Counted from the whole stretch's first letter, positions 17,211 through 60,937 are shown. The stretch is 60,937 nt of DNA, filler included, from Sphacelaria rigidula (GCA_964200075.2; 7 parts of 7 records of this genome joined end to end with filler, not necessarily neighbours in it), one strand, 5' to 3'. Program-made: numbers and translations. The notes: a model not told the origin generated them from the letters alone.

Positions 17211-17341
17211 GTAAGGGTTATTCAACAGGTTGGGATCGCGGCGTTTTTTCAAGTTCAACCAGGAGGTGTACTACTCATGATCTTACATGCCATAGTCATA
17301 AGACCATTGACCTCGCATCCCTACAAAGCCGGGACAGAGCA

Positions 17342-17441
17342 NNNNNNNNNNNNNNNNNNNNNNNNNNNNNNNNNNNNNNNNNNNNTTAATTAATTAANNN
17401 NNNNNNNNNNNNNNNNNNNNNNNNNNNNNNNNNNNNNNNNN
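17342..17441. other. Artificial contig linker
   Basis: Same 100-bp linker; contig 2 is 8722-17341. Confidence 0.97.
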
Positions 17442-17589
17442 CTCCCGCTCAAAAGGGACGCGTGGTCAATGGTCAACTCCCTAAGGCAAACAACAAATGA
17501 GTCCGCCCCCCCCCCCCCCCCGGATGCTCCGTCTCGAAAGGGATGCGTGGTCAATGGTCAAACGACTAAGGTAAGCAACGGATGAGTAT
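17442..17589 (+). repeat. Two adjacent copies of the 65-75 nt structured element, subfamily A
   Basis: ATGCTCCGTCTCGAAAGGGATGCGTGGTCAATGGTCAAACGACTAAGG...GAGTA, separated by a C run. Other copies (reverse): 21929-21994, 33213-33266, 51464-51529, 52399-52464, 54808-54873. Confidence 0.85.
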
Positions 17590-18503
17590 GTCCCCCCTCC
17601 CCGACGCTTACAGGTGAGCAGCTCCTCTCTGCTTGCGAGTACCGTCCCCCAGTTTAGATCAACCGACCGTGCATTCATCATGTGGTCTCCAAACCCGTAC
17701 ACATGTGACTATTTTTGAGGTGTGCTTACCATGGTTGACACACTTCAAAATATAACGCTGACCGTAACCAAGAACCCAACCCAAGACATATCGACAACTC
17801 CCGGGCAAAGTGCGCATTGGCAGACCTCGCCGAATTTCACTAAACGCGTTTTGCGCACGCTATTAGGAGCACTCGGGACTGCCAGCCGCACTAAAATATA
17901 TATGTATATATAAAAAGGTGTCCACACGCTAAAACCGAGCAATATCAAGCATGAATACCTTGGAGGTGAGCTGGGGTGCAAATCTACTGCTTTTTTATCC
18001 CATCAAATCAGCCCTTCTCACGCATTTTCTAGTAGTCGATCTAGGGTGGTCTGACACCCAAGGGCTTGAAAGCGGTTAAGAGAGGTCGCGTAAGGTGAAA
18101 GAGACGGACAGGAGGCAACAGGGCAACGCGTTGAAGAGGACATGTGGCTTGGACGACGTACAGGTACTAGTGTACTACGCTTCTAAAGACGGAATGAGTG
18201 AGAAAGGGCGGGAATAGACTGCCGTGCAGTGCTATCGTGCGACCCAGCAGCATGAAGAGCGAACTTTCTTGCGGCGAAACCTGATTTTGTCCAGATCTAC
18301 TTTGTGTGCTGATCCTCCTGCCAAGCCTTCGCCTCACATCTCTAACCCAGAGCTCAACCCTAAACCCGAGGTGTCACGCCGAGAACGGCCTAGCTTCCCT
18401 GATTTCTTTTTGCTCTACTCTGTTATTTTGCGACGAAAATCTTCGACGCATGATCGCGAGGGCTGAATTCCCCGAGGTCGCAGGGTCTGGGGGGTGGAGA
18501 GGT

Positions 18504-18579
18504 GTGCTCATGATCTTGCATACTGTAGTCTTCAGACCATCCATTGACCTCGTATTCCTACAAAGCCGAGACGGGGCAC
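18504..18579 (-). repeat. 65-75 nt structured element, subfamily B
   Basis: Same architecture as subfamily A with different loops; other copies at 17268-17341 and 60884-60937. Confidence 0.8.
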
Positions 18580-19059
18580 GCCGGGTTTTCACCAGACCAG
18601 GCTCGCAATCAATCGCCAAGCGCGAAGAGCCATCATGTGTTCATCGAGTCGCATGAAGGGTGAGCTGCATCCTGGTAAGATTGTTCGGCCCGAGGCGGAC
18701 TGATTGCCTTGCATTTGGAGGGCAGCCTCCAATGAGTTGTTTCACTTTCTGGTATCGCCACTTTCAGAGACAACCACGGCTTCCACAGTGCCTCATGGGT
18801 ATCATGCGATGTAAACACTACATAGTATGATTGATCATTCCCCTTACGCGGAACTGAAATTTTCCCACTCCACACAACATGATCTAGCTCGACAACCACC
18901 ATGGTTATCGCAATGAAAAACGTAAGCGCGCAAAAACAAAAACGGTAAATTGGTTTTTGCCTAGCTAACGCAGTGAGTGACGTGTTTTACACATCGTTGC
19001 CAACCGACGCCAACCCCATGGGGGGGGGGGGGGCTACACGCGAACAACGAAGAGCGCAC

Positions 19060-19231
19060 CTCCTTCGGGCCTGAGCCGATCTGCGCCTCACTTCCTGGCA
19101 GCTTGATGGCGAGCTTCCGCATCTGCTGCACCCTCTTGGAGTTGACATCGTCGGTTATCTTGGTGGCCTTGAGTCGCTTCTTCTTCTCTCGCGCTGCCGC
19201 CATGGCTTTCTCCAACCCTTCCTGTTGACTC
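19060..19231 (-). CDS. LPA1: DUF3493/LPA1-like protein exon SQQEGLEKAMAAAREKKKRLKATKITDDVNSKRVQQMRKLAIKLPGSEAQIGSGPKE
   Basis: CAG acceptor and GTGCG donor; phase-2 start joins the previous exon in frame; charged helical segment. Confidence 0.72.
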
Positions 19232-20277
19232 CTGCATGAGCAACATGGACGGGAAAGAAGAACACAAAAAAAATGAAACGACTTCTCCACACATGACTTT
19301 CAACTTTGCAGAAAGCAACGGCAGCGAGTGGTAAGTGTGCGTACGGTACGAACACGTCGGTAGCTTTTTCGTGAGGGGCAACGCATAAGAGCTACTACTA
19401 GCTGTTCGTCATGCCGCAATGCCCCCCCCCCCAGAAAAATGGGTGGTTCAACGAGGCAAAAACCGAGCACACGGAGCAGCCGGCAACTCCCACGCTAGGA
19501 TCGTCTTTGCCAATGTCGCCCACATGAAGGACACCATGAAGTCTCAACACCAGCTATCATGCGCTATATGATGTGATCATTTTCTTCGCGGCGGTTTTGG
19601 GGCAATCGCGGCATCAGTCATATGTTACATGCGACAACGGTATGAATTTAGCAAGGTATCACGTTACAACTTCACCTGCTCCCATGACACACACCTCCGG
19701 GATCACCCATCATCAAAACGTTTGTGGGTTAGGATTCACGCTACGGGTCTGCAGTTTTGACCTGTCCTCAGGATATCATGCCGGCCGGGAGATGGGGCGA
19801 CTTGGATATTGGAGTTGCCTCATAGCTACGCCGTTACAGTTCTTCAGCTTGGTTCGTCTTTGGTGCATCGACTGTATCATAGATTTCCGTTCGCTGTGGT
19901 CGCCGGGGGAGACATATGTAGCCCCGCGACCCAAGAGGTTCATTTTTTCAACGCCATCTTTGTCGCCTGACAAGACACGTTTCCCGCTCGATCCAGCACA
20001 GTGCATTGCTGCTGTTTGCACGTAACTCCTTCCTGTCATGATCCAGTAAACACCAGCTGTCCCGCGTATACAAGACTTCGAACATCGATACATCGCACAT
20101 CTTGGTTTAAAAAAAAAGTCGCGAGACTTGAACAAAAAACCTCATGCCGGGAAAAACTTCGGATGTGGAAAGAATAGATTTTTCGATAATCTTGATCTTG
20201 ATTGATTTAGTCCCGATTGAACTAATCGATCTTCTTCGCGAAAGCAATAGGCAAAAGGCAATAGGCGACACACTCAC

Positions 20278-20374
20278 GTCTCGAAGTTGTAGCAGAACGC
20301 CGCAAACGCCATTACACCGAAGTCAATGGCCAAGTTGAGGAGCACTTGCTGTAGCTCCAGAGCTCCCTCCTTTT
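20278..20374 (-). CDS. LPA1: DUF3493/LPA1-like protein exon KEGALELQQVLLNLAIDFGVMAFAAFCYNFE(T)
   Basis: NLAID motif plus second hydrophobic helix of DUF3493; phases 1 and 2 are consistent with both neighbours. Confidence 0.78.
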
Positions 20375-22175
20375 CTGACAGAGCTGCGATGAAAGGTGGA
20401 AGGAGGGGGAGAAAAAGGGAGAAGAAGAAAAAAAACGAAATACGGCCGAAACGACGAGTCAACCGACAGATGGATAATGACACTAAACAAATGACCACGC
20501 CAACGAGTCAGCGGCGTTTCCACAGTATGTGTATGACTATGATCATGATTATGATCATGATTATGACAACGACTATGATAATTTCTGTACATTACCCCCA
20601 ACCGTGGTCACAGACGTAGGCTCGCCTTTCCCTTACCGTCACAAAAGCTCGTGACATAAGAGAGGAGTGCCTACAGTATTCAGCGGCTTGCGATGGCCTT
20701 CACATACTGATGTTCACCCTCTCTGTCCGCGAGGCAGTCTACTCGAGTCCAAATATGCCGAAGATGCGTGACCTCACGTTCATGACTAATTTTCCCGATT
20801 TCTCCTCCGGCGGTGAAGATTCCGCGGTCTTTCTAATCAAAGGATCAGGTTTCTCACCTCTCCCATGACCGGACGCTACGGCAATACGGCAAGAGATCAT
20901 ACTCACGGCACTTGAGGGGGTAAATCAGTGCGGAAAACAAACGATTGGAGGACTAGACTTCAAGTGAGAACACGGGGCGCCAATGAACCTACCGAACGAT
21001 AACATTGAACAGGCATTGACAGCAACAGCCAGAACAAGGATCACAGACTGGCCAATACCATAAATAACACACACATACACATACACACACCGCCGCCGAC
21101 GTAGCGGCCGACATGTCGGTGAGCGATGAACACCGGCAGTAAGCGACGGTCGAAACAAGGAGTCGACCGTCGGGAAGGAGTAGTAGAACGGAGGGTGTTG
21201 AGAACTCTTCATCGCGCCGTACGGTGCACTCAAAGTTGCGGCCATCAACATGGCGAACAAAAACAACACGTACACAAGAGTGCTTGCGCAGACATACACT
21301 TGTCACATTTTGTCCCCCCCATACATAGCTGTTACCGCAGTGAGCTCATTGGCTCGGACATAGCCATACACGAGAAATGCAAAAAAAAAAAACTAGTAAA
21401 CACATGCGCGCGCGAAATGTCTCAAGTGGAGATCAAGGGCAGAGATATTAAACCCAACCCCAGCTTTGGCAGAGACCTGAAATAACTCATGACGTGATTT
21501 TTTCTGGAGGGCTAATGCCACCACGCCCAGATGGTCTAAACGAAAAGGGTACAGCAGCAGCCAGTTCGGGGGAGAGATTTCGGGTTCGAATCTCAACAGG
21601 ACCAGTTCTTGTACAGCATAATCTGGTCTATGTCGTTGCAAGGGAGAGAAAGTGAATAGCAAAAGTAGTGTCTTCGACGAGAGGGTGCGAGAGTGCTGAC
21701 TATAGTCATGATCCAATCTATGATACCAAAAATATCAGGCCATATACCGAGGGGGAGGGGGATAGTCCCGTAAGGCTACGTACGGACTTGACTCTAGGAA
21801 GGGGTGGCGTTGAAAGTATGATGAATGAGACGCCAACGAGTCTCATGGATTTAACCCCCCCCCCCCTTGGTTTTATGGATCACGCACCCCCCGCAAGGTC
21901 ATCGCACCACAAGAGAGGGCCGAGGGGCGTTCTCATTTGTTGCTTGCCTTAGTCGTTTGACCACTGACCACGCATCCCTTTCGAGACGGAGCATGAGGGT
22001 GGGGGGAAGGGGGGATGCATGAACGCTATCAATAGTGCGATGGCCTGTATGGGTATCCATTTCGACTTGACTTTTTCTGACGTGCTTGTCTCTCCTTCGA
22101 AGGGCGGGGTAGGGTTGGATCGGCTTCCGCTGTATCATCACAGGCGGGGTCCTGCGAGTGATGATTGCAAAAAAA

Positions 22176-22316
22176 CATGCCCTGGATAATGACAATAGAT
22201 TACACTGTCAAAAGTGTAGTGCGTACAGTATCGGGTATTGCGTCTATTTTAATAGACAATAGATTCCATACTGCACGCAGCACTTTTTGACAAAATAGTT
22301 CGTTGTCCACGGTGTG
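22176..22316. mobile_element. Diverged copy of the 138-bp MITE
   Basis: CATGCCCTGGA...TTGTCCACGGTGTG with shared internal GCGTACAGTATCG; a partial, internally duplicated copy lies at 33267-33428. Confidence 0.7.
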
Positions 22317-26161: not shown

Positions 26162-26841
26162 ATCGGGTTGCCTCCCCCCCGTCGTTTAAGCAGGCAGAGC
26201 TCAAGAGTCTTCTTGCTAGGACGCGAAGAAGCATGATACCCCCCCCCCCCCCCCCCCCGCGCGCGCGCGTGTGCTCTCAAAACCATGTTGAGCATGGGTG
26301 CCCCCCAAGCGGTGTGGTATGACCAGCGAGTGCAATAACGCGTCTGGGGAGGGGTGCCTTGTGTTACCGGTTGGTCGTCGCAAGGATTGGTTGACAGTCA
26401 CACCTAACAAGCACACACACACACACTACATCCAGCAAAAAGAAGAGTAGGAAGTAGGGTCTAAGCAAATCATTCCCACCTGAGTATATGACGTGGAACG
26501 CTTTCCGGTTTCGGAGAAAAGTCCCTATTTCCGCTGCCGCCCTACAGCAGCAACATTATAGACAGTAGCACCGGAGTTTTGTTTCCCCTGTCAACGTGAA
26601 CTTCATTGACGATGAGTATCCAACCAATGCGGACCGCTTCTGATACCTTTTTTTCTATTCATTAAAACCTTGGGAACTTCGTCATCGCGCCGTGGAAACA
26701 AAAAATGGGGTTCCGAAACTGTCGAGTAACCCCATGAAGAAAGTACCAGGGAGGAGTTTTGGAGCTGACCCTGACTCTTGAAAACGCCTCCCTTACCTAT
26801 CTGCCCTCTTCCCCGATATACCGTACAATATTCGTCTCAAG

Positions 26842-28813: not shown

Positions 28814-29045
28814 GTACGTTGTATCTACCATTGTCATGTGTCGTTACAGTATCCATTGTTCCGGTTTTTTTTTTGTCTTGTCTTGATGTTTTTTTCTTCT
28901 CTTCACCCATTTTTCTTCACCCAGTCAGTCCAGTTTTTTCCTTCATCTTCGTTTTCTCCCCTTTTCTCAAGTTTTCTTCTCACGAGTGTGGTTATTTTCC
29001 CTTTGGGGTACGGTGGGGGTCCCATCATGATGCGGTCCTCTAAAG

Positions 29046-29195
29046 TGTGGGGTCCCCCAACGGTGCGGGGTCCCACTCCAGGGCGGGGTTCCACTACAGT
29101 GCGGGGTCACACTACGTTGCGAGGTTCCACTACAGTGGGGGCTGGCTCACTACAGCGCGGGGTCCCACAACAGTGCGAGGTCCCACTACAGTGTG
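29046..29195. repeat. Minisatellite of about 18-bp units (GCGGGGTCCCACTACAGT)
   Basis: About eight degenerate units; accounts for the TTVRG repeats in the 28538-29200 ORF tail. Confidence 0.8.
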
Positions 29196-29624
29196 GTTGA
29201 AATCACGTGTCACAAGTCCAATCCTCTTATACTAATTTCAAGCACTCGCTCGCACGGTACCATTGTAGTGCGGGGTCCCGGTATAGTGCGGTCATGCAGG
29301 GCTGGCAACACACCGCACCATGCTAGGACCCCTACTATTGCTGTACCCTGTACAGTCTGGTTCAGGTGAATGCCCAAACTTTATTCCCCACAAGATACCG
29401 AACGCAAAACTGACTCGATATAAAGATACCTGGTATCATAGTGACCCCCACGAGTAAGCGAAGAGTGTGACATGGCCAGATTTTTTATCGCGTCCTTTGC
29501 TGAAGCGCTAGCAGTGAAAATATTTCTCGGTCAATCAGGGGCCTTCGGACTGTTCTGAACTTGAAAATGCAAACTCCGGACACAATTTGTACGCAATCTC
29601 GTGATGAATGACACCTTACAAGAG

Positions 29625-30790
29625 CAGGTTGAGTAGATTATGTACTTTTGAGTACCCGAGAAAAATACCCGAGTATTTACTCTACACAAATTTTGAGTAG
29701 ATCGTGTTCGACCTCCGATACTCTACTCAAATGTTGAGTAAGCACGCTCAGTAATACTTGAGTATATAGAGTATCACTTGGGTATGACTTCAATACTCTA
29801 CTCAAATGTTGAGTAGATTGTGAGTATGGTCTCAAATACTCCACTCAAAATTCAAGTAGATTGAGTACGGCCTAAAATGCTCTACTCAAAATTTGAGGAG
29901 ATCGAGTACAACCTCCAATACTCTGCTCAAATATAGAGTAAGCGCTCAAAGTAATACTCGAGTATGGAGTATCACTTGGGTACGATGAGTAACCGTGACC
30001 GTCGGCAACTTCTTGACTTCACTTCACAGATTAGGTTGAATACATGGGCGAACGATGGCCATCAATAAGATGGGGTGACGTCACGTCAAGGGCTACAACG
30101 AGTATGAGCGAATGATGACCATGAAAAAACAAAAAAAGCGTGAAGGTGAATGAAGCTATCTGCCCCAGCTCACCTCCCCCCACCGATGACAGTACATACT
30201 TGGTACTTAGGACGTGGAACGGTGGTGGCACGACATGAGGATGAGGGGCGAGACACTACTCAAATTTTGAGTAGATTGAGTACGATCTCCAATACTTTAC
30301 TCAATTTTTTACTAGGTTGAGTACGGCCTCAAATACTCTTCCCAAATTTTGGGCAGATTGAGTACGGCCTCAAACACTTCACTCAAATTTTGAGTAGATC
30401 GAGTACCACCTCAAATACTCGACTCAAATATTGAGTAAGCACTCCAAGTAATACCTGAGTAAAGAGTATCACTTTGGTATGACCTCAAAACTCTACTCAA
30501 TTTTTGGGTAGATTGCACACCCTGGACAAAAGAATACACCGTCAAAAAGTGTACTGCGTACAGTATCGACTCTTGCGCCTATTGCAATAGACAATAGATG
30601 CCGTGCTGTACGCAGTAACTTTTTTTACAATATAATCTATTGTCCAGGGTGTGGTAGATTGAGTATGACCTCAAATACCCCACTCAAATTTTGGGTAGAT
30701 GGAGTATGACCTCAAATACTCTATTCAAGATTCGAGTGTTAAATTATGACTTCGAAAATTCCGAGTTTTGAGTATACTCCATTCGACCTG
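29625..30790. repeat. Interrupted minisatellite of 41-bp hairpin units (TACTCTACTCAAATTTTGAGTAGATTGAGTACGGCCTCAAA)
   Basis: Repeated palindromic unit in a kinase intron; broken by non-repeat DNA at about 29995-30255 and by the MITE at 30516-30653. Confidence 0.85.
30516..30653. mobile_element. hAT-type MITE, 138 bp
   Basis: TIR CACACCCTGGACAA / TTGTCCAGGGTGTG; exact 8-bp TSD GTAGATTG. Confidence 0.88.
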
Positions 30791-30989
30791 CACTTGAAAC
30801 TTCAGTAATCGTCATCAGCTAGGGAGCTGGGGCATCTAATACGAAAACAAGATTTCAAACGGTTTGTATGGGATCGAGGTATATCCCAAACCGTGGTATT
30901 TGTGTGATCTAGCGTTCTGGCGTCGTCGGATTTCCACTGATTATATGAATCAAAGACCCGGTAAGCCTTGTGGCTGCTTTCCCTGTGTC

Positions 30990-31625
30990 CATCCGTACCA
31001 GGTAGTATCCCAGGTACTCTGGGGTACCCAGTCATTTCGGCAGTGGGTACCCCGGGTATCCGAGTATTTCAGTAGTTGTACTCAATTCATACCAGGAACT
31101 ACCCTAGGTTCTCTAGGGTGCTTAGTGCTTCGCAGTCTGTACCTCGGGCGCCCGAATATTTGAGTATTTGTACTCATTCCGTACCAGGTAGTACACCAGG
31201 TACTCTGGGGTACTCGCTCCCTTCAGTAGTCGGTACCACGGGTATTCGAGTATTTCAGTATTTGAAGTCAGCCCACACCAGGTAGTAGCCAAGATACTCT
31301 AGTTTGCTTGGAAGTTTCGGCAGTCTGCACCTTGTGTACCCGAGTTTTCAGTACTTGCACTCAGTCCGTACCAGGTAGTACCCCAGGTAGTCTGCGGTAC
31401 TCAATCCTTCGGCAGTGGGTACCACGCGTATCCGAGTATTTCAGTACTTGTTCTTAGTCCATATCAGGTAGTATCCCAGGTACTCTGGGATGCTTCGTGC
31501 TTTCGGCAGTCTGTACCTCGGGTACCCGAGTATTTGAGTACTTATACTCAGTCCACATCAGGTAGTACCCTGGTTGCTCTGGGGTTCTCAGTCCCCTCGG
31601 CAGTCGGTGCCCAGAACTTGCTCGG
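30990..31625. repeat. Tandem array of about seven 92-94 bp units
   Basis: A(C/T)CAGG anchors at 30997, 31091, 31183, 31277, 31370, 31463 and 31557. Confidence 0.85.
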
Positions 31626-32013: not shown

Positions 32014-33556
32014 GTATTTTGTGTTACGCTAGATGGGTAACAGAAAAAGACCTTCATGTTTTATCATGTGCACACCAACATCGCCGCGCCCCGGTGGTCT
32101 GAATGAAAATGACACACGCGAGACCGTTACGTTTGGATTTTTTTTCAGAGGATCTGATTTCCACAGTTGTAGGCGTGAGGACGTGAGTGGTAATGATGAT
32201 GTTTTTTGGCTGAGGTTGTATGACGAAAGTCGACGAAGTGCGGGAGTGTTCGGTCATGATCCAATGCGCGAGACTGAATGCAAGGCTTGTACTGTAATAG
32301 GAGAGAGGGATGGGCTGATCCCTTGAGGCCCCCGACTCGTCCCGACGAAGGGTAGGTGTTGAAGACGTGACTAGAACAAAGAAACAACTGTTCAAATGAA
32401 ATATACATGTTGCACACAAGAGGTTTCACCCCAGGCCGCTGGAGGGAAGAACTATGCAGGCAAAAGCTTGAAAACGTAAATCACCGGTCGATCAAATGAT
32501 ACTCGGAAGCTATCTGACAATGCTACACGAGCAAGGCATCAACTTTCCGCGGTATGTTTCAGAGTTTGTTATACCATGTATGAACGTTTATTTTCGAGCA
32601 GCATGGTATTAGCACTTCCGCAGTCTTTCCGCTTTTTATCGAGTTGTTACAGACACCTACGTATCGTTCCAGCGTGTTTTGGCACGACGGACACCGAAAA
32701 GAATGTAAAAAGGAAGGAAAAAACGTTTTTCTTTCGAGATTCGAATCCGCAATATCCACCCGAATTGGCGTTGATGTACAGGGTTGTCTGTCCCCGCTTG
32801 AAGGCGGTCCTTTTAAAACCGGGGTCCCACTTTGATGCGGCCCCTTATTGAGGCGAGCCCGACTTCCAGGGTGTCCGTTCTAAAGCAGAGCCACACAATG
32901 AGGCGATTTTTTTCAAGGGAGGGCCTCATTTTAACGCAGTCATTTCTAAGGGAGGGCGCCACGTTAAGGCTATTTCTTGTTGAAGGGAGCCCCACTTCAG
33001 GATAGAGCATCCCACTCGGCCCTCCTTGAAGGCGGTGGGAATCGGCGTACATCAATACTTTTCCCGTGGGTAGGTAGGTAGGTAGGTAGATGGATAAGTC
33101 GGGCTCGATTCACTTCAAGGCTGAGTCGCACCTGGGGAGGTTCACTTTTTGCCCACTCTGTACTGCCGTAAAGTAGGGACCCCACTGCACTAGTTTGACC
33201 ATCAGGAGGGGGCGTGCATTTGTTGCTTGCCTTCGTCGTTTGACCATTGACCACGCACCCCTTTCGTGTGTACTGCAAACAGTATCGAGTATTGCGTATA
33301 TTTGCCATAGGCGCAATATTCGATACTGTTTGCAGTCCACCTTTTTGCCAATGTGATACAATGGACGCAATATTCGATACTGCACGCATTACACTTTTTG
33401 CCAATGTCGTCTGTTTGTCCACGGTGTTTACAATTTGTGGAATCCAATAATCTCGCGTAGCTCTGCGATTATCTCCAGCGGCAGGACAGAGTTGACGTTA
33501 GTGAACGTTGTGTGTGTTTGCGGGCGACCTGTATTTTCGTGTTCGCGTGCCGACAG

Positions 33557-34880: not shown

Positions 34881-35768
34881 GAGCGAGGACACACAAAGGA
34901 CACGGGCGAGGAGCTTCCTCTCTGTCGTCGCTCCTCTCTCTGGTGATATCGTCATCGAGACGCGTGTACACCGCATTCGTTGGGTGCACCTAGCCCGAAC
35001 TGCCCAACTCCTCCTGCGGAGCTTTGAGAGGAAAGACTTCCCTTCTGTGTTACTGTTTTGTATTTTCCCAAGGAAAACGATTTGCGGGTTGAACTTTATT
35101 TTATAGTTTAAGCCCAAAAATTACGACCCGCTGTTATTTGGCTGTTGCACTCCGTTGCGCAGGTGTTGAACGTACAAAAAGTGCATTTTGTATGTTGAGA
35201 AGTATCTCGTCTCGGATGACAGGGGCGATGAGTCACGAATGCTCTGGAATGTGACGTTCACCGACGTTTCCGGTTTCGTGCCGATGAAGAGTCAAGAGAC
35301 TTGTTTTGGGTGAAGATTTGAGAATTTGGCGCTAGCTATCGCTTTGTAACTCGAAGTGGTGTAAGTAGCGTGATTGCATGTTCATGATGGACGATATTTT
35401 CTTGGGATCTCTTGCGAGTTGTTCGGAAGTGGGGCAAGCTTTTATGGGGCTGTTGTTGAAAGCAGCGGAAGAGATTACTATTCTTTGCGGAAAACGACGG
35501 TTCTATCAGGTACCAATGACGTCTGACTTTGTCAAGCTCTGATGTAACTACTTGTTGGTAGTAGAGAGTTTTGGGTGTGCTGTAGACTCTAGCCACCATT
35601 GTTGCCTAAGGTAGGGGACATTGGGTAGGTGGAGTTGCGGGTCTGATTGCCGGACTCTGTGATGGGTGACCTCCATGACGAGAGAGCCCGGTTTTGCTAC
35701 TCTGGTGGAGAGAGGCTATGGTCCTGCTTTCATGTACTATGCTGAGGGTTAATACATGAATAACTAAA

Positions 35769-36211
35769 AACACGGGATCTTACAAATTGGGGATGGATCA
35801 TTTATTGGGGATGAGAAACCCGGAGGATTAAAATCTTTGTATCCACACGAAATCTTCGAAATACGGTTCCATTTCTTCACCTTCTGATAGCTATTGACAC
35901 CTGCTACACGTCAAACAAATTTGGATCTCGATCATCGAAATTTTGGGGTCCCAGGTGAAAAACAAATTCGGAACCATTTGGGCGTCCGTTCGGACACCCG
36001 AAATTCCCCAAAAGTGGTTCTTCACCTAGGACCCCAAAATTTCGATGATCGAAATCCAAATTTGTTTGGCGTGTAGCAGGTGTCAATAGCTATCAGTAGG
36101 TGAAGAAATGGAACCGTCTTTCGAAGATTTCGTGTGGATACGAAGATTTTAATTCTCCGGGTTTCTCATCCCCAATAGAAGATCCATCCCCAATTTGTAA
36201 GATCCCGTGTT
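35769..36211. mobile_element. Foldback MITE family A, copy 2 (443 bp)
   Basis: Arms of about 200 bp; TAAA duplicated on both sides. Confidence 0.92.
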
Positions 36212-37772: not shown

Positions 37773-37857
<85 letters not shown>

Positions 37858-40422: not shown

Positions 40423-40442
40423 AGACGACGACGACGACGACG

Positions 40443-41652: not shown

Positions 41653-42148
41653 GTAAGCCAACCTGCCCTGAAACTGTCTGAACGGGACAAATAACGCCTC
41701 TCTACCTTCCTTCCTCATGACAATATGCCTGATGAAAAACCCGTAGTCCCGTGTCTACCAAACCAAAACAATACACAAAATAATTTTTAGATTGATGAAC
41801 ACGCGAAACATCTCATCGCAGTTGATACTGTGCTTTGATGGGGATATATATTCACAACAATGAACTGTACTGGACTGTACAATACCATGTGGGACAGTGC
41901 GCTATACCGTGCTCAAACGTGCGGTGCCATGTACTGCAAAATTAGCGCGGCATATGTGCGACGTATGGCTGGCTATACAATGTAGATGCCTGCGGCTTAT
42001 TTCGATATATGGGGGTGTTATATACCGTCAGAAATTCCAGTTACACGCGCGTCCTTACAGCATGCGCACAGCTGCTGCAGCACAGTGAGTAGGGCGTGAA
42101 AGGGAAGGGGGAAAGTACAGTACAGACAGCGCAGGACAATGTATATAT

Positions 42149-42592
42149 AACACGGGATCTTACAAATTGGGGATGGATCATTTATTGGGGATGAGAAACC
42201 CGGAGAATTAGAATCTTCGTATCCCCACCAAATCTTCGGAATACGGTACCATTTCTTCACCTACTGATAGCTATTGACAACCGCTACACGCCATACAAAT
42301 TTGGATTTTAAACACCGAAATGTTGAGGTCCTAGGTGAAAAAACAATTTCGGGACCATTTTGGCGTCCGTTCGGACACCCGGAATTCCCCAAAAGTGGTT
42401 TTTCACCTAGGACCCCAATATTTCGATGATCGAGATCCAAATTTGTTTGGCGTGTAGCGGTTGTCAATAGCTATCAGTAGGTGGAGAAATGAAACCGTAT
42501 TTAGAAGACTTGTTGCGGATACGAAGATTTCAATTCTCCGGGTTTCTCATCCCCAATAAAAGATCCATCCCCAATTTGTATGATCCCGTGTT
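42149..42592. mobile_element. Foldback MITE family A, copy 3 (444 bp)
   Basis: Same sequence family; ATAT duplicated on both sides. Confidence 0.92.
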
Positions 42593-43499
42593 ATATATTT
42601 TCTCTACCTACAGTGCGACGTGAAAAGGACTTGAACAACGTGCAGCATTGTACGGCCCGCACTGTTGCTGTCCATGGTGAGTGTGTATGCAATAGGCGGC
42701 CGGTTGTTCCCCATGCACCCTACATCCCAGGCGTGTCGTCGCCGCGCGATGTCGCGACCATGAAAGAAGATGCTCAAGTTTCCACCAACAAGAAATACAT
42801 CATACCCACCCCAGGCAGTGTGTATCTGTATCCCTGTGCCCAACTCGTGATCTTTGCTGCAGGGTTGTGGTGGTAGCTGGGGGAATAATAACTGTTGTGA
42901 GGTTCTTTGCATTGTTCGATCTGTGAACAGCCGGTTTTGTATAGATCTTCGGGTGATGATCTATATACCATATAAAACTGCTGGGGTCCCAAAGGTGCGA
43001 TTGATTAAGTGACTTTTTCTAAACATGGTTTGTTGGTAGACACTGGACCACGGGTTTTTTATGAACTATGTGCATTCATATGCGAGGTGTACACCGTGTT
43101 ACTAGCATCTTTATCATGCCTGGTTTGCTTGGAGCACAGGCTTTTGGACATACACACGTAACCAGTGTATGGGATCTCTATTTAGCAAAAGCTGTTGAGA
43201 GTTATTCATCCATTAGTCCATCTATACATGGGCTGGGGGGCGAAAGGATGAACTTCGTTCAGCAATTTTTTCTGCGTGTCGGATCCCATACGTTGATGAC
43301 GGTGCAGTATGCGGGATATGCCCAGCTGACGCTGTTCGCAATACATCCCTTTTTACCCAATTTCCGGGTGAATTGGACGGCAAAGTGAAGATTTATTTCG
43401 ATTCCACATCTGACACTTTCTACGATACCCCCCCCCCCCCCCCCAAAACCACTTAAAAAATAAAAAAAAAAAATGGCATACAAAGTTTTTAATTTTGGT

Positions 43500-50498: not shown

Positions 50499-52218
50499 GT
50501 GTGGAGCTGGACTGTCTGTGGGATACGTTGTGGTATTCGCAATAAGAATATGGATCTTGTAAGATACAGCGATGTCAAAGCTCGTTTACGGGTCTGGACG
50601 CTCACACAAATGCACAATGACGGTGTGAGATTTGGGCTTTGGGTTTGGACAAAGATGCAGGAGTTCAGGGGGAATCGTGAATCCCAAGGATGAGTACCAG
50701 TGTTCTGTAGGAGTGTCTACGGATGGAACGACAAGAGCCACGAAAAGGCGTTGAGTCTTATTTCGTGGTATATGACTATCGTAGTTTCTGTTTTGATCCC
50801 CTATTTTGAGTCATGACACGGGAGGGGTTACACATATGGATTCAGATGTTTCTCATTGAGAGGTTTTTAATTCAGGAGCTTGACAGGAATATGGGCCAGG
50901 ACATTCCCGTTTAAAGATTATTTCGGCATATTCCAGGGGTTTCTATAGTTAGGAGCTTCACAACAATATGGATCAGGGCATGCCCGCCTAAAGATTCATT
51001 CGTCATATTCCGAGCTCTCACATATTTCCGAAGTAGTCTTTGAATGAGATGCATGGCTCATAACATTTTGAATCTGATGAATATCTTGTGCTCATTCTAC
51101 AGTGGTCTCACTCTCTTGTTGGTTGACATATATATGTTGAAAGGGAAGGAACTTACGGGATCATAACACCTGAAATGCGCTACTATTTCAGCAGGGGGAT
51201 GGTTGAATACGGACCAATTTTTTGCACGCCAAACTTTATATAACGTTCCGTACAACCTTTTATTCATGGGATGGCACAAATATTTGTCGAGAACACGCGA
51301 AGTGTTCCCCCTTCCAACCACGGCAATAATACCGTCACTCTATTGCGTCACTTTTCAAAATGAAAAGCACCGCTATTGCGGTACGTGCAGCATCGTGGAG
51401 CCGACGTCGGGATGAAAACGTATTTTTTCGGACTTCGAGATATGCTACGATAGGGGGGGCGATGTACTCATTTGTCGCTTGCCTTAGTGGTTTAACCATC
51501 GATCACGCATTCCTTGCGAGACGGAGCACAGTTCCCACTCCCGGTGGAGACACCTCCAACACTTTGGCGCTCAATACATTTCTTCCATACATTGCACAGA
51601 AAGCTTTGCATGTCTTATCTTCTTCCCGACTCGCCGTCTGTGGCCATCATCTGTGTCCTGGTGTAGCGATTGCTCTCTCGCTACTGCCTAATGTACCAAA
51701 CGATTTCCTCCTACCTTTGTTTACTTCCCGCATTTCCCTCTTCAATACGCCCCGTTCCTCCTTTCATAGTTCACATTCTGCCGCTATATGAGTTTTACTC
51801 TCTATTGCTTTGCCACAGGGGTAGTTATGTGCATCTACTCCCTCCCCCATTCGACCACTGGCAAGTCTCTCCCTTCTTTCTGCCAGGTCCAGGTCTCCCA
51901 CCTGAAATCGCAATAGGTGTTTGTGTGCATGATGGGGGTGTTATTCAGCGAAATGAAGCGCTCATAGGTGTGCTAGACGCCCCCAACACACTCGCGATGC
52001 GCTTGTACTTGGCTTAAAACGATGCCGAGTAGTATTTTTGAGTAGTATTTCTCACTATCGAGCGTGTTTGAACAACCGGTGTTGCCTTCAACTTCTTGAA
52101 GTGGAATTTCGTAGAAGAAATGGTTCAAAATGTCGCCCCCTATCTCAGTGCGCTTTGGGCCGAACTATCTTAGCAGGATGCAGCTCACCCTTCATGCGAC
52201 TCGCTGAAAACACCACGG

Positions 52219-52318
52219 NNNNNNNNNNNNNNNNNNNNNNNNNNNNNNNNNNNNNNNNNNNNTTAATTAATTAANNNNNNNNNNNNNNNNNNNNNNNNNN
52301 NNNNNNNNNNNNNNNNNN
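52219..52318. other. Artificial contig linker
   Basis: Same 100-bp linker; contig 6 is 43600-52218 and contig 7 is 52319-60937. Confidence 0.97.
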
Positions 52319-52750
52319 GGGTTGAGGGGGGATAGAGTTGGGGGGGAGAAAATGGTTGTGGGTGTGGGGGGGGGGGGGGGGGGGGGGGGGGGTGAGGGGT
52401 ACTCATTTTTTGCTTGCCCTAGTCATTTGGCCCTAGACAAGGCGTCCCTTTCGAGACGGAGCACCGATCCTACTCCTCACAGAGAAACCTCCAACATGTG
52501 GGCGCTCACCACGTTTCTTCCATACGTCACGCAAAATACACGAAAACCTCTCTCGGGGAGGGGAGGCGGGGGGGGATGCTCCGCAGTTAGAACGAGGGGG
52601 TTTATCGAAGTTTGGACCTAAAATCCGACCGTGCAGCACACGTTCTTGTCAAATCGTGACGATATTATAACATCAAACGCAACTCAGGGCAGACCAAAGA
52701 CCCTCGGGTAAGGGGAGTACAAGAAAGGTCGGCAAACTGTGCTTAGTTTA

Positions 52751-53100
52751 GGCAACGAATCCCGATTTGTACAAACATGAGGATTTCAGCCCGTCTATCG
52801 GCGATTTTCTCCCGTGGATTGATTTTTCGAACCCCAGTCCGATGGGCCATGTTTTTCGGCTAGCTGTGAGCAAACCAGATCATTACTTGAAAAATTCGGG
52901 GGAGATGCAGGAGTCTCCCGATTTGGGCAAAAAAATGGTGAACCAGAAGTCAACGTCCAGAAAATCGGAGAATTGATCTGGTTTGCTCACAGCTAGCCGA
53001 AAAACATTGCCCAACGGACTGGGGTCCGAAAAATCAATCCACGGGAGAAAATCGCCCGTAGACGAGCTGAAATCTTCATATTAAATCGAGATTCGTTGCC
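52751..53100. mobile_element. Foldback MITE, 350 bp, arms of about 130 bp
   Basis: GGCAACGAATC...GATTCGTTGCC termini with long near-identical inverted arms; flanks TTA and ATA. Confidence 0.85.
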
Positions 53101-54499
53101 ATAAAAGTGGGTGTCCCACCCCTGAGTTACCAACAAAACGCAATTCAAATAACCGGTATTTTCCACCCGACAGTCCCATTCGGAGCAAAGCTGCCGGCCA
53201 TCGGCAAGGCGACGATAGAACGTCGCGGTCGTAGCATCATTTCGCCGCTACCGCCGTACAACGGCATCGCGTTCTCCCGATGGGAGCATCGCGGGCCCAC
53301 AACGACCCGTACCGGTGTGGACCATACCAAATGACGGTCGACTGGTGGAGTGATACATCATGCTGCGACAAGGCCATGAGTCCTCGATGGGTCCTTCTTG
53401 TAATTGACCCTCTCTATGAGATAGTGTCCTTATTGCACCCACCTCCCTTTGACGAGCCTTTCCGCGCGTTGCTCTGACCAGAAGAAATTTGTGGAGATAG
53501 TCCTCCATACTGGCTAGCGGTGAGGATATCGTTCGCATCTCTACCTACCTCCACATATATCTTGCGTATTCTGGGTGCTCGAGCCACCAACAAGCGTTGC
53601 ACAATACTCGTTGGTGAGTTTTGTGGATTCTGCTGGTCCCCCACCATTTCTTCGACCTCTTTGGCTCAGCGTTTTTCGGGGGACTTGCATTTACCGCGGT
53701 GCTCGGGGCCGGGATTTAAACCTGAGACCTTCTGTTCAACAAGAACAGGGGGGTTGATGTCTCCAATGCTAAAGGTACTGGCCGCATCGATGGTGGAAAC
53801 GAAGAGGGTATAGCGATGGCCAGACTACAGTAGCGGCCAGAATCGGGAAATGGTAATCAGAACAAGGGCGCGCCGACGAAAAATGCGCAGCGGCATACAC
53901 TGGCGACAACATCATGCGCACGCCGCAGTGCAAGGGGATGCCGTGGTGCGAAGAGGATGTCGCAGTGCACGACCGTGCATTTCTTCCGCGGGACAGCAAT
54001 AGGCCTATACTTTACGCAGTGCATTATTTTTGTCTATTGCAACCATCGACCATATATATATATATATATATATATACATTTTCAGGGTGTGGAGCATTCG
54101 CAGTCGAAAAATCAATTGTTGACAACGCTTGAAATGCGCTTGAAATGGCGTCTATGAACTGGCCGAAATGGACCACTGTACTTCGCACTCGACGTCAAGG
54201 CACGTGCACATCATTGACATCGCCCAAAATTGACACTGATATCGTGCACAGTACTGTTGGGGCATGCGAACCACTCAGAAAACATGTAGGAGAAAAAAAC
54301 GCAAACGTTTCCCCGCTTCTATTGATGAAAACATCGAGCTCGTCAATCAGAAACAAGGGATCCGTCCTGTCGGTTCGAGTAGAACGTCATTACGCCTCCT
54401 GCGCATGACACACACAATGCCCCGGGGTACATTGCTTGCGGCCGTACTGTTTGCACATCCTTACTTATGTTTCAAGCGTAAAAATTGCCAAAGCAAGAG

Positions 54500-55500
54500 G
54501 TGACCCACGCGGAGGGTGACTGTACAGATAGACAAAGCCGAAGCTAGACAAAACCCGAACTAAAATGTGCACTACGAGTGGAGTACAATTCAGTACAGCA
54601 CAGTGCAGTACAGGGTAGTGTTGTCTTCTCCCTTCCCCCCTCTCTGTTCCTTCCCTTTTTCTACGGGCATTACCAAGGATCAGATTACACGAAACCTTTG
54701 GAGAGTGTGTCCTCTTCGTGCCGCCAGCTCAAAACTGGAACCCGTTGACGCCAGGACGGGTCATCTGGGTCTCGCATTCATTCTTTGGCTCACCCTGAGG
54801 GAGGGGGATGCTCATTTGTTGGTTGCCTTAGTCGTTTGACCATTGATCGCGCATGCCTTTCGAGACGGAGGCAGTGACCCACCCTGGGGATGAATGACTA
54901 AAGATAGACGAAGCCGGAATGAAACGCACAGTACAGCAACGGAATAGTAAAACGCAGTACAATGCAGTAGAGTACAGCGCAGTGATGTTTACTCCCTACC
55001 CCTCGCTGTATTCCTTCCCCTTGTCTATGGGTATCAACAATGATCAGATTACCCGAAGCCTGGGGATCGCGGCCTCGTCGTGCCGCCAGCTCTATAACGG
55101 AACCCTTTTACCGCCGAAAGGTTCATCTTGGACTCATTTTTCAAGCGAATATTATGCCGAAAAAGAGATGACTCACCCTGCGGGTGATTGTATATAGATA
55201 GACGAAGCCAAACTAAAAATCAGAGTACAATAATACAGTGCAGTACAGTGCTGTGCAGTAAAACCCTGTACAGTACAGTTTAGTTCTCCTCTCTTCCCCC
55301 GACTGCGTTCCTTCCTTTCGTCCGTGGTATCACCGAGGATCAGACTACACGAAACCGTTGGAGAGCATGAACTCTTCTTGCCGCCAGCTTTAAAGTGGAA
55401 CCCTTTGACCGCCAGGGTGGGCAATTTGAGTCTTGCAGTCATTTTGCAAGCGAAATTTATCTCAATGCAACATACGACCAACCCCGAGGGTGATACTTGC
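54500..55500. repeat. Three diverged tandem units of about 300-370 bp
   Basis: AGATAGAC(A/G)AAGCC, GATCAGA(T/C)TAC and TGCCGCCAGCT each recur three times in the same order. Confidence 0.75.
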
Positions 55501-56960: not shown

Positions 56961-57854
56961 GAGCGCGCGCGCGCACGATTCGAGCGACGCAACGTATACG
57001 CAATGCCGAAGCCCCCAGATGCAGATACAGCACATTTTTCGAGGCTGAAGTCGTATTTTCCCAGCGACACGGTACCAAGCAAATAGTGCAAATCTCGCAT
57101 CTTACAGTTACAGTAGTAGCAGCAGCCGGTGTTGGCGTGGTGTTTGGATATATACACGAACTGCCTAGAATCCAAGAAAAACGGTTCGCCTGTGGCAGAT
57201 CGACGGATACTTGCAGTAAAAACAGGACGGCGGACGGGTTCACCACAAGCAAAGCGAGCCGTCGCTCATGGTTAGCCTTGGAGATAATCTTCGATCACGC
57301 AAGTTACCCCAAAATTATGGGCGCGCGCCATGGCAACTGTAGCACTTCCTCTCGTCGAAGCGTTTTCGGTTTCAGGTACGGTGCCCGACCAGCTGGAGCA
57401 GTAACGTGCTGTCTGTGCTGTACTATACAATGTCTCAACAGAACCACTAGCCGATCCAGAACACCTGCATCATGATACCTCCAACAGGAACACAGCCATC
57501 ACCCGCTTCCGAATACACAAGGCTCACCGTTTCAGATTCTCCAGCGTTATTATCAGCAGGCATGGCCATGGGGTCGAGTGCTACCCCGTCGCAGCCGCCA
57601 CTGCTGCGTTAGAGATGGACAGCACACAGGTGGCTTAAGCAGTGAAGAACCGCGAAGGAACACCGCAATTCTGGAACTAGTTCTTAACTAGTTATGGAAA
57701 AAAAAAACTACTTTGGGTTATTTTCAAATCTAAAAGAATAAAAAATGAGTTCTCAATTAGACCTGGTTCTTACCGGAGAACCAGCTTCCCCTTGTGTTGG
57801 AAAACGCTACATGTGCTGTTCGCTTGGGTACTCTCGGCTGTGCGCTGCTGCTTC

Positions 57855-57860
<6 letters not shown>

Positions 57861-57900
<40 letters not shown>
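57861..57900. repeat. (CTG)n microsatellite
   Basis: Read directly; another at 59823-59854. Confidence 0.9.
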
Positions 57901-57901
<1 letters not shown>

Positions 57902-57918
57902 CAATTTCCGCTTTTTAG

Positions 57919-57999
57919 TTGGAAATGAGTGGTTCTGCAAGGCCACGTGCTGATGGTCCCAACATTCTTCAAACGTTAGACGTGGAGCACTTCGCCCAG
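57919..57999 (+). CDS. Candidate exon LEMSGSARPRADGPNILQTLDVEHFAQ, product unknown
   Basis: TTTTTAG acceptor and CAG|GTGAG donor; 81 bp, phase 0/0. Confidence 0.45.
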
Positions 58000-59234
58000 G
58001 TGAGATGTTTGGAAGCCCTCCCCAGGCAGGGAGTGAGCATGCGGCACAACTTTCAAACGTGCTGATGGCTGGGCATGTTTGGGATGTGCCACCTGTAATT
58101 GGGGTGCGGCATCATGTTTGCCGGTGATGGTGCGCGACGGAAATGGATATCATAACCGCCACCTCGCTGTCCCCCACAAGTGATACACAGGTTGATGGCA
58201 GATGAGACTACATCATTATTGTTCAGCCGTATCCTGTCAACATCGTGACTATGATTATGATTTCCATTATAAGCCAATCAGAACGCGTTAGTTTGTCGCA
58301 TAGATGTATGGGTGGTGATTAGGGTTTAGGAGTTAGAAGTTGGGCACGAGTACAACGTACGGAGCGGTTTTCGTCGGCGCTCGGTACGCCTTCCGAATAA
58401 TCATGCCTGCAATGGGGTTGGCGTTTGTAGGACGCGGGTGGTGTTGGATGAGAGTGGAGGGCACGACTTGGAGGATTAAACACGGGGTTTCACACATTGC
58501 TGATGGATTCCTGTTTCGAGGATGAACCTTGAAAACCGTCCTAAGACCACTTCTTATGTAAAATAGGCATTGCAAAATAGCCGTTTTTCTGACAACAGAC
58601 CGAGAAACCACTCCTGTACAGGCCACTTCTCATACATTAAAAAAACAGTTGTAAACAATGACGTTTTTCAACCGTACGTTTTTCGAGATATTTTTTTCAA
58701 GTAACCCTCGTTACGTGATGGACGCTGTCAAAATTGGAACAGCGGTGATCATCGTTTTTTACAACACGTGTGGGCATAATTTCAAATACTGGGGCGTGCG
58801 AGAAAGACACGGCACTCTGCTGTCGTGTCGTGGTGGACGGTCCGTACTGTCTGTCTGTACTACTGTGATATTTTGACTGAGTAATACTTGGTGGGCTGCA
58901 TGACGCAAGACGATCAAAGAGAATTTCGCCTTGCTGTACTCACTGACGGTAGAACTGACGGCTGTGCCTTTTCGCTGCACGGTAGTACTTGACTGTACCG
59001 ACAGCACGGACAATAGCATAGATAGTGCTATATTGTATGCATTTGCTGTAGTACTACAGTAGTAGCACTGCTTGTAGTCTCGTGCGCACAGTCAGTACGG
59101 TCCTATCTCTACACGGCTGGGTGCGTGGGCAGTCTGTACAGCATTGCGACTGCTGTTCGTAACACGCTGCATGCACAGACCTCAAAAGCGCCACAACACT
59201 GTCGGACGACATACAGACTGTGTGTACAGCACTC

Positions 59235-59818
59235 GTCATCGACCCTGCCCTGTGCTGCTCTCATGGGGTGAAGGGCCAAGACATTACTGGTGGGCGAAGG
59301 ACAATGGAGCAAAACGTTGACTGCCCGCGACCACCAGCACCAGCAGTAGTGATGACAGCCAAGCCATCATGGGTGCTGTCGTGGGCTGTAGGGTGTGTTG
59401 GCGTACGGTGTGATTTCAAATGTTTTTTCAAAAACATTATTCGATGGCCCAAGGTTATCAGGAAATCTCGATTTTCTGATAATTTTGGACAAACGAAAAA
59501 TGTTATTAGAAGATATTTTACAAAAAAAAAACGCGTTTTCTGATCCCATAAAAAGCTTTTTTTGGCCTGTCATCAGAAAGCAGCTTTTTCGGAACTGTTT
59601 TTTTTATACATAGGAAGTAGCCTTATGTGACCAGAAAATGCATTTTATTATTACAAAAATCTCATGACTTTTTTCGATAGCCCGAAGTCATGAAAAAATG
59701 GAGATTATCTGATAACTTTGGGCTTTCGAAAAATGTCATTGAAAGGGCGTTTGAAATCCCGCCGCCCTCCAACACACCCTACAGCCCACGACAGCACCAT
59801 GTCGGCTTGAATGACATC

Positions 59819-59855
<37 letters not shown>

Positions 59856-59950
59856 GCGCTCAGTGAGCGTGTTGCATCCTCATCTTCGCCCCCCAGTAGC
59901 GTGGTGGCCCTCGACCCCGTGGCAAAAGCAGGGGGTGGGTTCGATGATCT
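59235..59950. repeat. Large imperfect inverted repeat (foldback element)
   Basis: Arms of about 250 bp with a perfect 30-bp block (59372-59401 against 59769-59798) and an AT-rich centre. Confidence 0.75.
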
Positions 59951-60937
59951 CTTGCCAGAAGCTGTGCTGGCTTTGGCGTCGGCGTCGGCGTCGGCGTTGG
60001 CGTTGGTTGTTCAATTTTCAGCGAGACGATACGTCGTCAGACGCTGAGCCGGATGAGCCCGCGCCTGCTTTTTGGGTATGAACCCTCTCATCCGTGGACG
60101 GACAACGCGCAAAAAAATAGTGCAGCCGTGAGTGTTTGTACCGTGTACATGGGCGAAACACGACTGCAAAAACATGACTAAAATAGAAACGGTGAAGCGT
60201 ATACTGTACACATGGGAAGAAAACCAAGCGGGCGGGAGGGGGCAGGGGGGGCACAAGCGGGCGCAGCAGCGAGAGCAGTAGCGTGTGGCACTCTCGAGGC
60301 TACTCCTGTCCATACCTCGTGCTCCAAACACAATTATCGAATGAATCAATATAACCCGTGGTACGTGCACCGTGCTAAAAGGAAACAAGCCGAGGGTGGG
60401 GATGGGGAGTAGCACATGTCTACACCGCGGCAGCAGCAGTAGCGGCACGCGTCAGCAGCTGCTGTGCCATGCTAAAGATACAAAATGAAGGGCAAAAAGA
60501 AAAGGATCGCAAAACTCAGGCGCGCGCACCTTGTAGAAAGTTATGAACCAAACGGGTGGGTTGGGGCGTGAGGCATGGCGACTGTACCGCACAGCAGCAG
60601 CAGTAGCTGGCAGCGCATGCCAGGCTACTGTCGAGCCATGGTAGGAATACAGCAGTAAACAATACGAAGCGAATTCAAAACTATGGTGCCAACAACTCAC
60701 AGAGAAAAAAAAGGAGGGGGTGGGGGCGGGCGGGGGGAAGCGTTGGCAGTATCAGAAGCAGCAGTTCGTTGCGCATGTCAATTTACTGCTGTGCAAGCCA
60801 CGAAGCACACATCGTATGCAGCGGCAAATACTCGATTTCTTCTGGTGCGTGCACTGTACAACGAAATTGAGGGAGGGGCGGGTGTACTCATGATTATGCA
60901 TGCCATAGTCATCAGACCATTGACCTCGCATCCCTAC

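Follow-up and report, generated by a model that had tools for sequence, protein, structure and literature searches.

Background

Long interspersed elements (LINEs) of the L1 type encode an apurinic/apyrimidinic (AP) endonuclease, a reverse transcriptase (RT) and a C-terminal Cys-rich motif, carry a poly(A) tail and prime reverse transcription on that tail from a T-rich nick; their target duplications begin with A, the tail base. RTE-type LINEs have very short 3' untranslated regions (UTRs) and are not known to carry a C-terminal Cys/His knuckle, and LINEs with microsatellite tails or microsatellite targets were reportedly described by Kojima and Fujiwara in 2004. Recognition of the RNA is treated in PMC3747384, the available part of which describes 'stringent-type' LINEs, whose RT recognises a conserved 3'-terminal stem-loop together with a short repeat tail, as in the eel element UnaL2 (L2 clade, TGTAA tail), and calls recognition by mammalian L1 'relaxed'. 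The present work concerns a stretch of 60,937 nucleotides (nt) of DNA from Sphacelaria rigidula (GCA_964200075.2), referred to below as the window, and an element of 65-75 nt present in it in ten copies. An earlier interpretation (the sequence-only reading) had proposed that this element is a self-contained structured RNA of no known family. We report that it is, very probably, the extreme 3' end of a LINE, and that the copies found in the window are dead retrocopies with truncated 5' ends, derived from two of its lineages (A and B).

A literature search, with Repbase and Dfam outside its scope, returned nothing that dealt specifically with C-tailed LINEs or with the LINE families of brown algae, and we make no claim of an undescribed family. 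The preprint 10.64898/2025.12.07.692804, in the portion accessible, sorts repeats only into DNA, long terminal repeat (LTR) or LINE classes.

Results

The window is composed of seven pieces, each about 8,620 nt long, with N44-TTAATTAATTAA-N44 spacers between them and a 10-N gap inside the first, and resembles repeat-rich eukaryotic DNA (GC content 43-53%, microsatellites and tandem repeats numerous). A search with an nhmmer profile of the aligned copies recovered exactly the ten sites listed in the sequence-only reading, distributed as it had stated over five contig pieces (10 matches at E <= 5.9e-14); the only other matches were four at E 2.3-9.7, which are noise. Repeat comparison and alignment of the copies indicated that the two proposed subfamilies, A and B, are both real, with pairwise identity among the window copies of about 75-96%. 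The variants quoted earlier were also seen in the alignment (GCAA at 51464, GGGACG at 52399, and the subfamily B loops UUAU, UGAA and UGAU), as was the C-rich run 3' of the element. A 5' extension of about 75 nt had been ascribed to two copies; this holds for the copy at 52399 (142 nt in total) but not for that at 51464, which reaches about 400 nt beyond the core and measures 464 nt. The remaining eight copies are about 55-80 nt long, three of them being cut by a piece end or by the window end. The sequences flanking different copies are unrelated to each other.

The identity of the element was revealed by sequences from other samples. Metagenome contigs were scanned with a 20-mer from the element, giving 71 loci. 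Three of these (L011, L018 and L052, each with a marine label) match the element along 90-99 nt or more; the remaining 68, with alignments of at most 41 nt, were rejected as chance matches of the 20-mer. In L011, L018 and L052 the element forms the 3' end of a conserved block of at least 460 nt, which is 87-93% identical among the three and 73-78% identical to the window copy at 51464 over about 400 nt. An open frame spans the whole block and the element (...CPCGKAIESRIHIVVECERYKEER...GAPSRKGCVVNGQMTKASNK*) on the strand that the sequence-only reading had taken as the RNA, and its stop is the TGA inside AAATGAGTAC, previously drawn as part of the closing stem. A protein search with the 147-residue tail returned 19 relatives, among them P0003 (1,360 amino acids, aa) and P0011 (1,328 aa), both carrying Exo_endo_phos and RVT_1 domains and both with the C-terminus ...KASNK.

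A scan of genome contigs found L072, a 5,259-nt contig binned in a 'bacterial' metagenome-assembled genome (MAG), which holds a complete element and was used as the reference for copy coordinates (blastn). A single open reading frame (ORF) of 1,359 codons at 1068-5147 runs through the 65-75 nt element. Pfam searches of this ORF detected Exo_endo_phos (E 7.9e-11, aa 170-392) and Exo_endo_phos_2 (E 1.4e-7), placing the endonuclease at aa 170-414, and RVT_1 (E 6.7e-32, aa 740-989), on the same strand as the shared 3' end and upstream of it; the encoded LINE protein also has a C-terminal Cys/His knuckle (CPCG...H....C). Downstream of the stop L072 continues with GTACG and then C13. The 65-75 nt element thus consists of the last 21 codons (...GAPSRKGCVVNGQ[M/T]TKASNK), the TGA and GTAC(G), and is followed by a variable C-rich tail. 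Nine window copies were placed by blastn with 3' ends at L072 5150-5165 and 5' starts at 4702, 5026 and 5084-5101, and the tenth (18504, subfamily B) was tied to the L072 terminus by nhmmer and by an alignment of the copies (A1). When the 138 proteins retrieved in the analysis were compared with the window by tblastn, six regions only were matched, all at copies of the element. The eukaryote names among the homologues are those of two brown algae only, Sphacelaria rigidula and Ectocarpus sp. Of the sequencing runs containing the stretch, one DNA run carries the label 'algae metagenome'; no RNA run was listed, and four presumed RNA runs had only 6-7% of the words. The host of the LINE is thus probably a brown alga or a relative of one.

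These results indicate that the sequence-only reading was right to consider the end of a mobile element, since the L072 element ends in this sequence, and that it chose the right strand, the one shared with the RT/endonuclease ORF of a LINE moving via RNA. The self-contained structured RNA gives way to the 3' terminus of a LINE with endonuclease and RT; a match to a transposon terminus, named beforehand as the finding that would speak against such an RNA, is what L072 provides. One end of a DNA transposon or of a Helitron, or a satellite-type repeat spreading without RNA, could also look like a short repeat with a fixed end beside a homopolymer and could account for the tandem pair 17442 and 17524, but here the fixed end coincides with the 3' end of an RT/endonuclease ORF that has the same orientation, the copies share that end and differ at the 5' end, their flanks are unrelated, and no inverted-repeat partner was present among the longest 25 of the 216 repeat pairs. 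We consider this explanation extremely improbable. A short interspersed element (SINE) was rejected as well: an RNA polymerase III promoter head of tRNA, 7SL or 5S origin was not found (ARAGORN detected no tRNA-like sequence in the window, and there was no Rfam match), and the short copies start directly in LINE sequence.

Further searches gave little. The protein Atlas returned generic endonuclease/RT clusters only, and the assemblies behind L072 and L073 contained no related contigs beyond those two. Three DNA patterns run against viral contigs gave 0, 0 and 1 locus, and one protein scan of them found no relative; the single viral locus (L077) was a chance match, and L074, with 23 residues only at 48% identity, was treated as spurious. 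Eukaryotic LINE sequence was found in assemblies labelled bacterial, namely L072 (an 'uncultured bacterium' MAG), L073 (a Hyphomonas oceanitis contig of 330 nt) and P0005 (a protein from a Parasphingorhabdus MAG). This is most likely contamination by algal DNA, and the LINE fragments may serve as a contamination flag for the three records. On the minus strand of L072, at about 440-520, lies an inverted fragment resembling the LINE 3' end; it shares GGTGCTCCGTCTC, GTGGTC, AATGG, AAGGCA and ATGAG with it, is without the UGGUC/GACUA hairpin and has about 35 extra nt before its C-rich run. The fragment may represent a third subfamily; tblastn of P0003 gave no match there.

The longest window copy (51453..51937, minus strand; about 464-485 nt with a C7 tail) was matched by nhmmer at 51461-51531 and by blastn to L072 4702-5162 (76% over 464 nt). 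The coding sequence in it, which covers the last ~155 residues of the LINE protein from the CCHC knuckle region to the stop, has decayed and carries frameshifts and an in-frame stop; tblastn of P0003 matched the copy with residues 1204-1341 (E 1.4e-26) and 1315-1360 (E 1.3e-9). The second longest, of about 142 nt with a long tail (52360..52552, minus strand; nhmmer 52396-52466; L072 5026-5165, 85% over 142 nt), was matched by P0003 residues 1315-1360 at E 1.3e-10. Its tail is the G27 run seen on the plus strand at 52366-52392.

Among the short copies of subfamily A, that at 17442..17521 (plus strand; nhmmer 17442-17507, E 1.2e-17; L072 5091-5165, 89%) ends in a C16 tail (17506-17521) and is truncated at its 5' side by the start of a contig piece. 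It is followed by the copy at 17524..17605 (plus strand; nhmmer 17524-17592, E 5.5e-22; L072 5084-5164, 90%), which runs for about 66 nt from TGCTCC and has a short C-rich tail. The copy at 21915..21995 (minus strand; nhmmer 21926-21995, E 6.4e-23; L072 5087-5156, 95.7%) also covers about 66 nt from TGCTCC and has C-rich sequence at both flanks, and that at 54797..54892 (minus strand; nhmmer 54805-54870, E 2.3e-19; L072 5089-5161, 88%) covers about 65 nt from TGCCTCC and has the tail CCCCCT. A shorter copy, at 33205..33268 (minus strand; nhmmer 33209-33268, E 2.5e-15; L072 5097-5160, 89%), begins at CGAAAGG, that is at L072 5097.

The three subfamily B copies are all on the minus strand. That at 17266..17341 (nhmmer 17266-17338, E 3e-17; blastn L072 5101-5150) has the end of a contig piece at its 5' side, and that at 60871..60937 (nhmmer 60880-60936, E 2.2e-15; L072 5101-5164, 81.5%) is cut at its 5' side by the window end. 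The third, at 18501..18578 (nhmmer 18501-18574, E 5.9e-14; alignment A1), has its 5' end at GTGCCCC, the same point as the short subfamily A copies. One contig piece stops at 17341, precisely where a subfamily B copy has its 5' boundary (TGCTC), and the following piece, at 17442, begins 2-3 nt inside a subfamily A copy. Pieces would be expected to break in this way at the edges of a high-copy repeat, which hints at a high copy number in the genome.

Each of the 14 copies compared is followed by a C-rich tail of about 5-30 nt, which bears out the tie to C/G tracts proposed in the sequence-only reading. The best candidate target duplication is that of the 54808 copy, TCCC-CAGGGTG / TCCCTCAGGGTG, which begins with C's and has 12 of 12 matched bases with one gap (shuffle p ~0.05; about 16 nt by eye). 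The 17524 copy is inserted within the C16 tail of the 17442 copy and has the candidate duplication CCCCCCCCCCCG / CCCCCCTCCCCG (shuffle p ~0.1). A candidate was also seen at 52399, where both junctions are C-rich, and no convincing target duplication at 21929, 33213, 51464 or 18504.

The window contains 17 C/G runs of at least 8 nt, the longest of 27 nt, compared with 0.85 in shuffles; only about three of the 17 adjoin a LINE copy. Long C/G runs were located at 4933-5135, 8726-8745, 16333-16344, 19020-19033, 19422-19432, 21855-21866, 26239-26258 and 43428-43444, several of them at the starts of contig pieces or at the 10-N gap, and such runs probably break the assembly. A second repeat family of the form '...GATAGCC + C-run' (4949, 5326, 26239 and 43428) was considered and rejected, as its pairwise local alignments fell under the reporting score.

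Five short copies have a visible 5' junction. Four of them (17524, 21929, 54808 and the subfamily B copy 18504) start within about 1 nt of L072 5087, at TGC(C/T)(C)CC, and the fifth starts at L072 5097. The shared start may be the product of microhomology joining between a C-rich target and the C/U-rich patch CUCCGUCUC, by eye the most C-rich patch near the 3' end, or of a discrete RNA species of 65 nt. The second possibility can be stated more fully: the ~65-nt unit (TGCTCC...GAGTAC plus C tail) would be a non-autonomous retroposon made of the tail only, or a processed 3' fragment of the LINE RNA whose 5' end is defined by cleavage or by an internal start, which folds into a three-way junction and is copied by the LINE RT. 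This proposal sits within the LINE explanation and does not replace it. In its favour, L072 5087 is the base of the proposed closing stem and eight of the ten copies are about 80 nt or shorter. On the other hand, the observable 5' ends number just five, joining by microhomology at CUCCGUCUC would account for the common start with no RNA structure at all, and the window has no tRNA-like head by ARAGORN. Together with the folding results given below, these points make a discrete tail-only RNA seem unlikely to us.

The last 63 nt of the element were compared with the upstream ~380 nt for identity to L072, and the terminus was the more conserved in all five comparisons: 100% and 96.3%, respectively, in L011; 98.4% and 88.5% in L018 (p = 0.012); 95.2% and 85.0% in L052 (p = 0.028); 85.7% and 73.9% in the 51464 copy (p = 0.056); and 87.3% and 80.0% in the 52399 copy. 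Pooled third codon positions were identical at 60 of 63 sites in the terminus and at 306 of 380 upstream (p = 0.0035), these p-values overstating independence because every comparison uses L072 as reference and the sequences are related. In more distant LINE proteins, whose endonuclease-RT part is about 40% identical, a stretch lacking conservation is followed by a C-terminus that again reads ...GCVVNG..AMA... Conservation returning at this point could reflect either a C-terminal peptide with a function or a nucleic-acid signal that overlaps it, and a 3'-end recognition signal of the 'stringent' type for reverse transcription in the terminus is plausible.

The RNA fold put forward in the sequence-only reading was examined in 14 sequences, namely the ten window copies and L011, L018, L052 and L072. 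The three stems can indeed be drawn, with 88.3% of the 205 pair cells standard, but the shuffle mean is 88.4%, so that the stems persist only through sequence conservation. The reported swap of a U-A for an A-U pair was absent, as a two-sided change occurred in none of the 16 pairs. The covariation score was 0.055, under the shuffle mean of 0.073 and reached by 500 of 500 shuffles, in a test of low power whose 14 sequences are few, highly conserved and too small a sample to exclude the fold. RNAalifold retained the 5-bp hairpin UGGUC-N4-GACUA only (-4.98 kcal/mol). The absence of compensatory changes and the single hairpin supported by RNAalifold both tell against a discrete tail-only RNA.

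The claim that the element folds on one strand only proved weak for the window copies, which fold no better than dinucleotide shuffles (z from -1.84 to +0.55 in sense and from -0.48 to +1.65 in antisense), and in a 146-nt context z was -0.02; neither result favours the tail-only RNA. The claim fared better with intact termini: the 68-nt termini of L072 and L018 gave z = -2.06 in sense, and for L072, with 8 of 200 shuffles as good in sense, z was +0.41 in antisense. The minimum-energy fold of the intact L072 terminus is the three-way junction that a tail-only RNA would require, but in L018, despite the same z, the closing helix differs. Loops had been said to vary while stems persist, and minority bases are in fact more frequent in loops (26 of 111) than in stems (33 of 387; p = 8e-5), with fractions of 0.085 in stems, 0.147 in junctions and 0.234 in loops. 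The most variable loop bases occupy codon positions 1 and 2, and the third positions of the adjacent stems differ in at most two of the 14 copies. Both observations would suit a structured tail-only RNA, but the contrast of stems and loops is partly circular, the stems having been chosen from these same sequences. The specific three-stem fold lacks covariation support and is unproven.

The fold bears as well on a ribozyme-like module, one of the suggestions of the sequence-only reading. HDV-like (hepatitis delta virus-like) and hammerhead ribozymes occur in other retroelements, and if the element were a self-cleaving ribozyme of a retrotransposon (HDV-like, hammerhead or twister type), the short copies would owe their start to cleavage at its 5' edge, and they do begin precisely where the proposed fold has its 5' edge. 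However, an Rfam search of the whole window gave no match to the element at the gathering threshold, pistol and hatchet ribozymes included, and no family was found at E <= 10 in 17442-22100 or 51200-55000, which together hold seven copies. With strands of 0, 9 and 15 nt, the junction does not match the hammerhead core, an HDV-like P1 could not be drawn from the 5' end by inspection, and the 14 sequences showed no covariation. Such a ribozyme is therefore very improbable, though somewhat less so than a DNA-transposon or satellite origin.

Other repeats were observed in the window. A 68-nt repeat is present at 52145-52212 and, inverted, at 18636-18703 (89.7% identical); of the two, one is about 60 nt away from the LINE copy 18504 and the other is found about 230 nt past the 5' end of LINE copy 51464. 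Three adjoining tandem arrays occupy 29038-29196, 29655-30737 and 30946-31605, with periods of about 18, 41 and 93 nt, and array-related pieces stand beside two LINE copies at 22191-22316 and 33268-33427. Only one of the 127 stop-to-stop ORFs of at least 100 aa had a Pfam match, to a copia-type gag with a zinc knuckle (37976-38392, minus strand). This gag and zinc-knuckle fragment belongs to a probable copia-type LTR retrotransposon at 35768-42598, which is flanked by repeats of about 440 nt (35768-36212 and 42143-42598), each an inverted pair of arms of about 200 nt; a third copy of the flanking repeat lies at 15878-16332. Long microsatellites with trinucleotide units, (TTG)n/(CAA)n and (CTG)n, were found at 4491-4579, 36572-36736, 37756-37901, 40436-40494, 57837-57919 and 59800-59870, some of them inside the longest ORF of the window (36761-37972, minus strand), which has no Pfam match.

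Discussion

The repeat analysed here belongs to an ordinary class, that of truncated LINE 3' ends. It should be masked as such in annotation and not reported as a new non-coding RNA. Less ordinary are its C tail, the ORF that reaches the terminus, the extra conservation of the last 63 nt and the recurrent 65-nt form.

Several results weigh against the assignment to a LINE or against the way in which we read its terminus. The window itself holds no full-length LINE, and tblastn with the 138 proteins detected no LINE coding sequence in it beyond the last ~155 codons; the link is drawn through sequences from other samples, 76-96% identical. The nearest solved structures of the RT among Protein Data Bank (PDB) matches, L1 ORF2p and R2, express a general resemblance and do not define a clade. 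Convincing target duplications were seen in only two or three of the seven analysable copies, and the 5' start common to four of the five short copies is not predicted by random 5' truncation or abortive reverse transcription. To the common reference of the conservation comparisons must be added that the minority-base fractions at codon positions 1, 2 and 3 (0.113, 0.169 and 0.111 in 14 copies) are not coding-like. As the variation is not concentrated at third positions, coding alone is insufficient to explain the conservation.

With these reservations, a 3' end of a LINE is the explanation that we favour, and the copies would arise by target-primed reverse transcription. The endonuclease would nick a G/C homopolymer tract, and, by analogy with the pairing of a T-run and poly(A) in L1, the G-run of the nicked strand would pair with the C tail of the RNA and prime the synthesis of complementary DNA (cDNA). 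Synthesis would begin at the 3' end and mostly abort early. The terminal ~63 nt plausibly carry a signal in cis by which the RT recognises its own RNA ('stringent' recognition), and such a signal would explain conservation beyond coding needs. Joining of the C-rich target to CUCCGUCUC by microhomology may then give the short copies their common 5' end.

A wider proposal is that in a group of LINEs of this brown-algal type poly(C) tails and G/C homopolymer targets replace the usual poly(A) tails and T-rich targets, that the recognition signal lies in the last 21 codons of the RT gene and is sufficient alone, and that a discrete ~65-nt tail-only RNA is the species most often copied, seeding C/G runs. 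Taken as a whole we regard this proposal as doubtful; if it were true, one sequence would be under protein and RNA constraint at once. Since the ORF comes within 5 nt of the end of the element, any 3' recognition signal must overlap coding sequence. This ORF, the C-homopolymer tail with its possible targeting of G/C tracts, and the recurrent 65-nt copy form are of interest for work on algal transposons. The repeat also appears to break short-read assemblies, since the window has contig pieces with the element or its C/G runs at their start or end.

The LINE shares features with each of the described systems. As in RTE, a single ORF extends almost to the 3' end, but the C-terminal Cys/His knuckle (CPCG...H....C) sets the protein apart from RTE, in which such a knuckle is not known. 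Like LINEs that target microsatellites, the element ends in the simple sequence into which it is inserted (the 17524 copy in a C tail; the 21929 and 52399 copies with both junctions C-rich), but the repeat is a mononucleotide C/G run, and the 33213 and 18504 copies are without a C-run at the 5' junction. The resemblance to L1 extends to the domain order, to the RT, which among solved structures is nearest to human L1 ORF2p (E 6.6e-21), to the 5' truncation of the copies, to the proposed pairing of a homopolymer tail with its target, which is analogous, and to candidate target duplications that begin with the tail base, here C. On the other hand, the tail is (C)n and not (A)n, and L072 has a single ORF without a separate ORF1. 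In contrast also to L1 recognition, called 'relaxed' in the part of PMC3747384 consulted, the 3'-terminal sequence is conserved here.

The comparison with LINEs of the UnaL2 type, so far as the same part of PMC3747384 describes them, shows differences and likenesses. Unlike in those elements, the conserved terminus consists of the last 21 codons and not of a 3' UTR, which is here 5 nt long; the tail is a C homopolymer, there are no compensatory changes and no partner SINE was seen. The likenesses are that a conserved 3'-terminal ~60-80 nt is common to the truncated copies, that the tail is a simple repeat other than poly(A), that a small hairpin with a variable loop (UGGUC-N4-GACUA) lies near the end, and that the terminus is more conserved than the sequence upstream of it.

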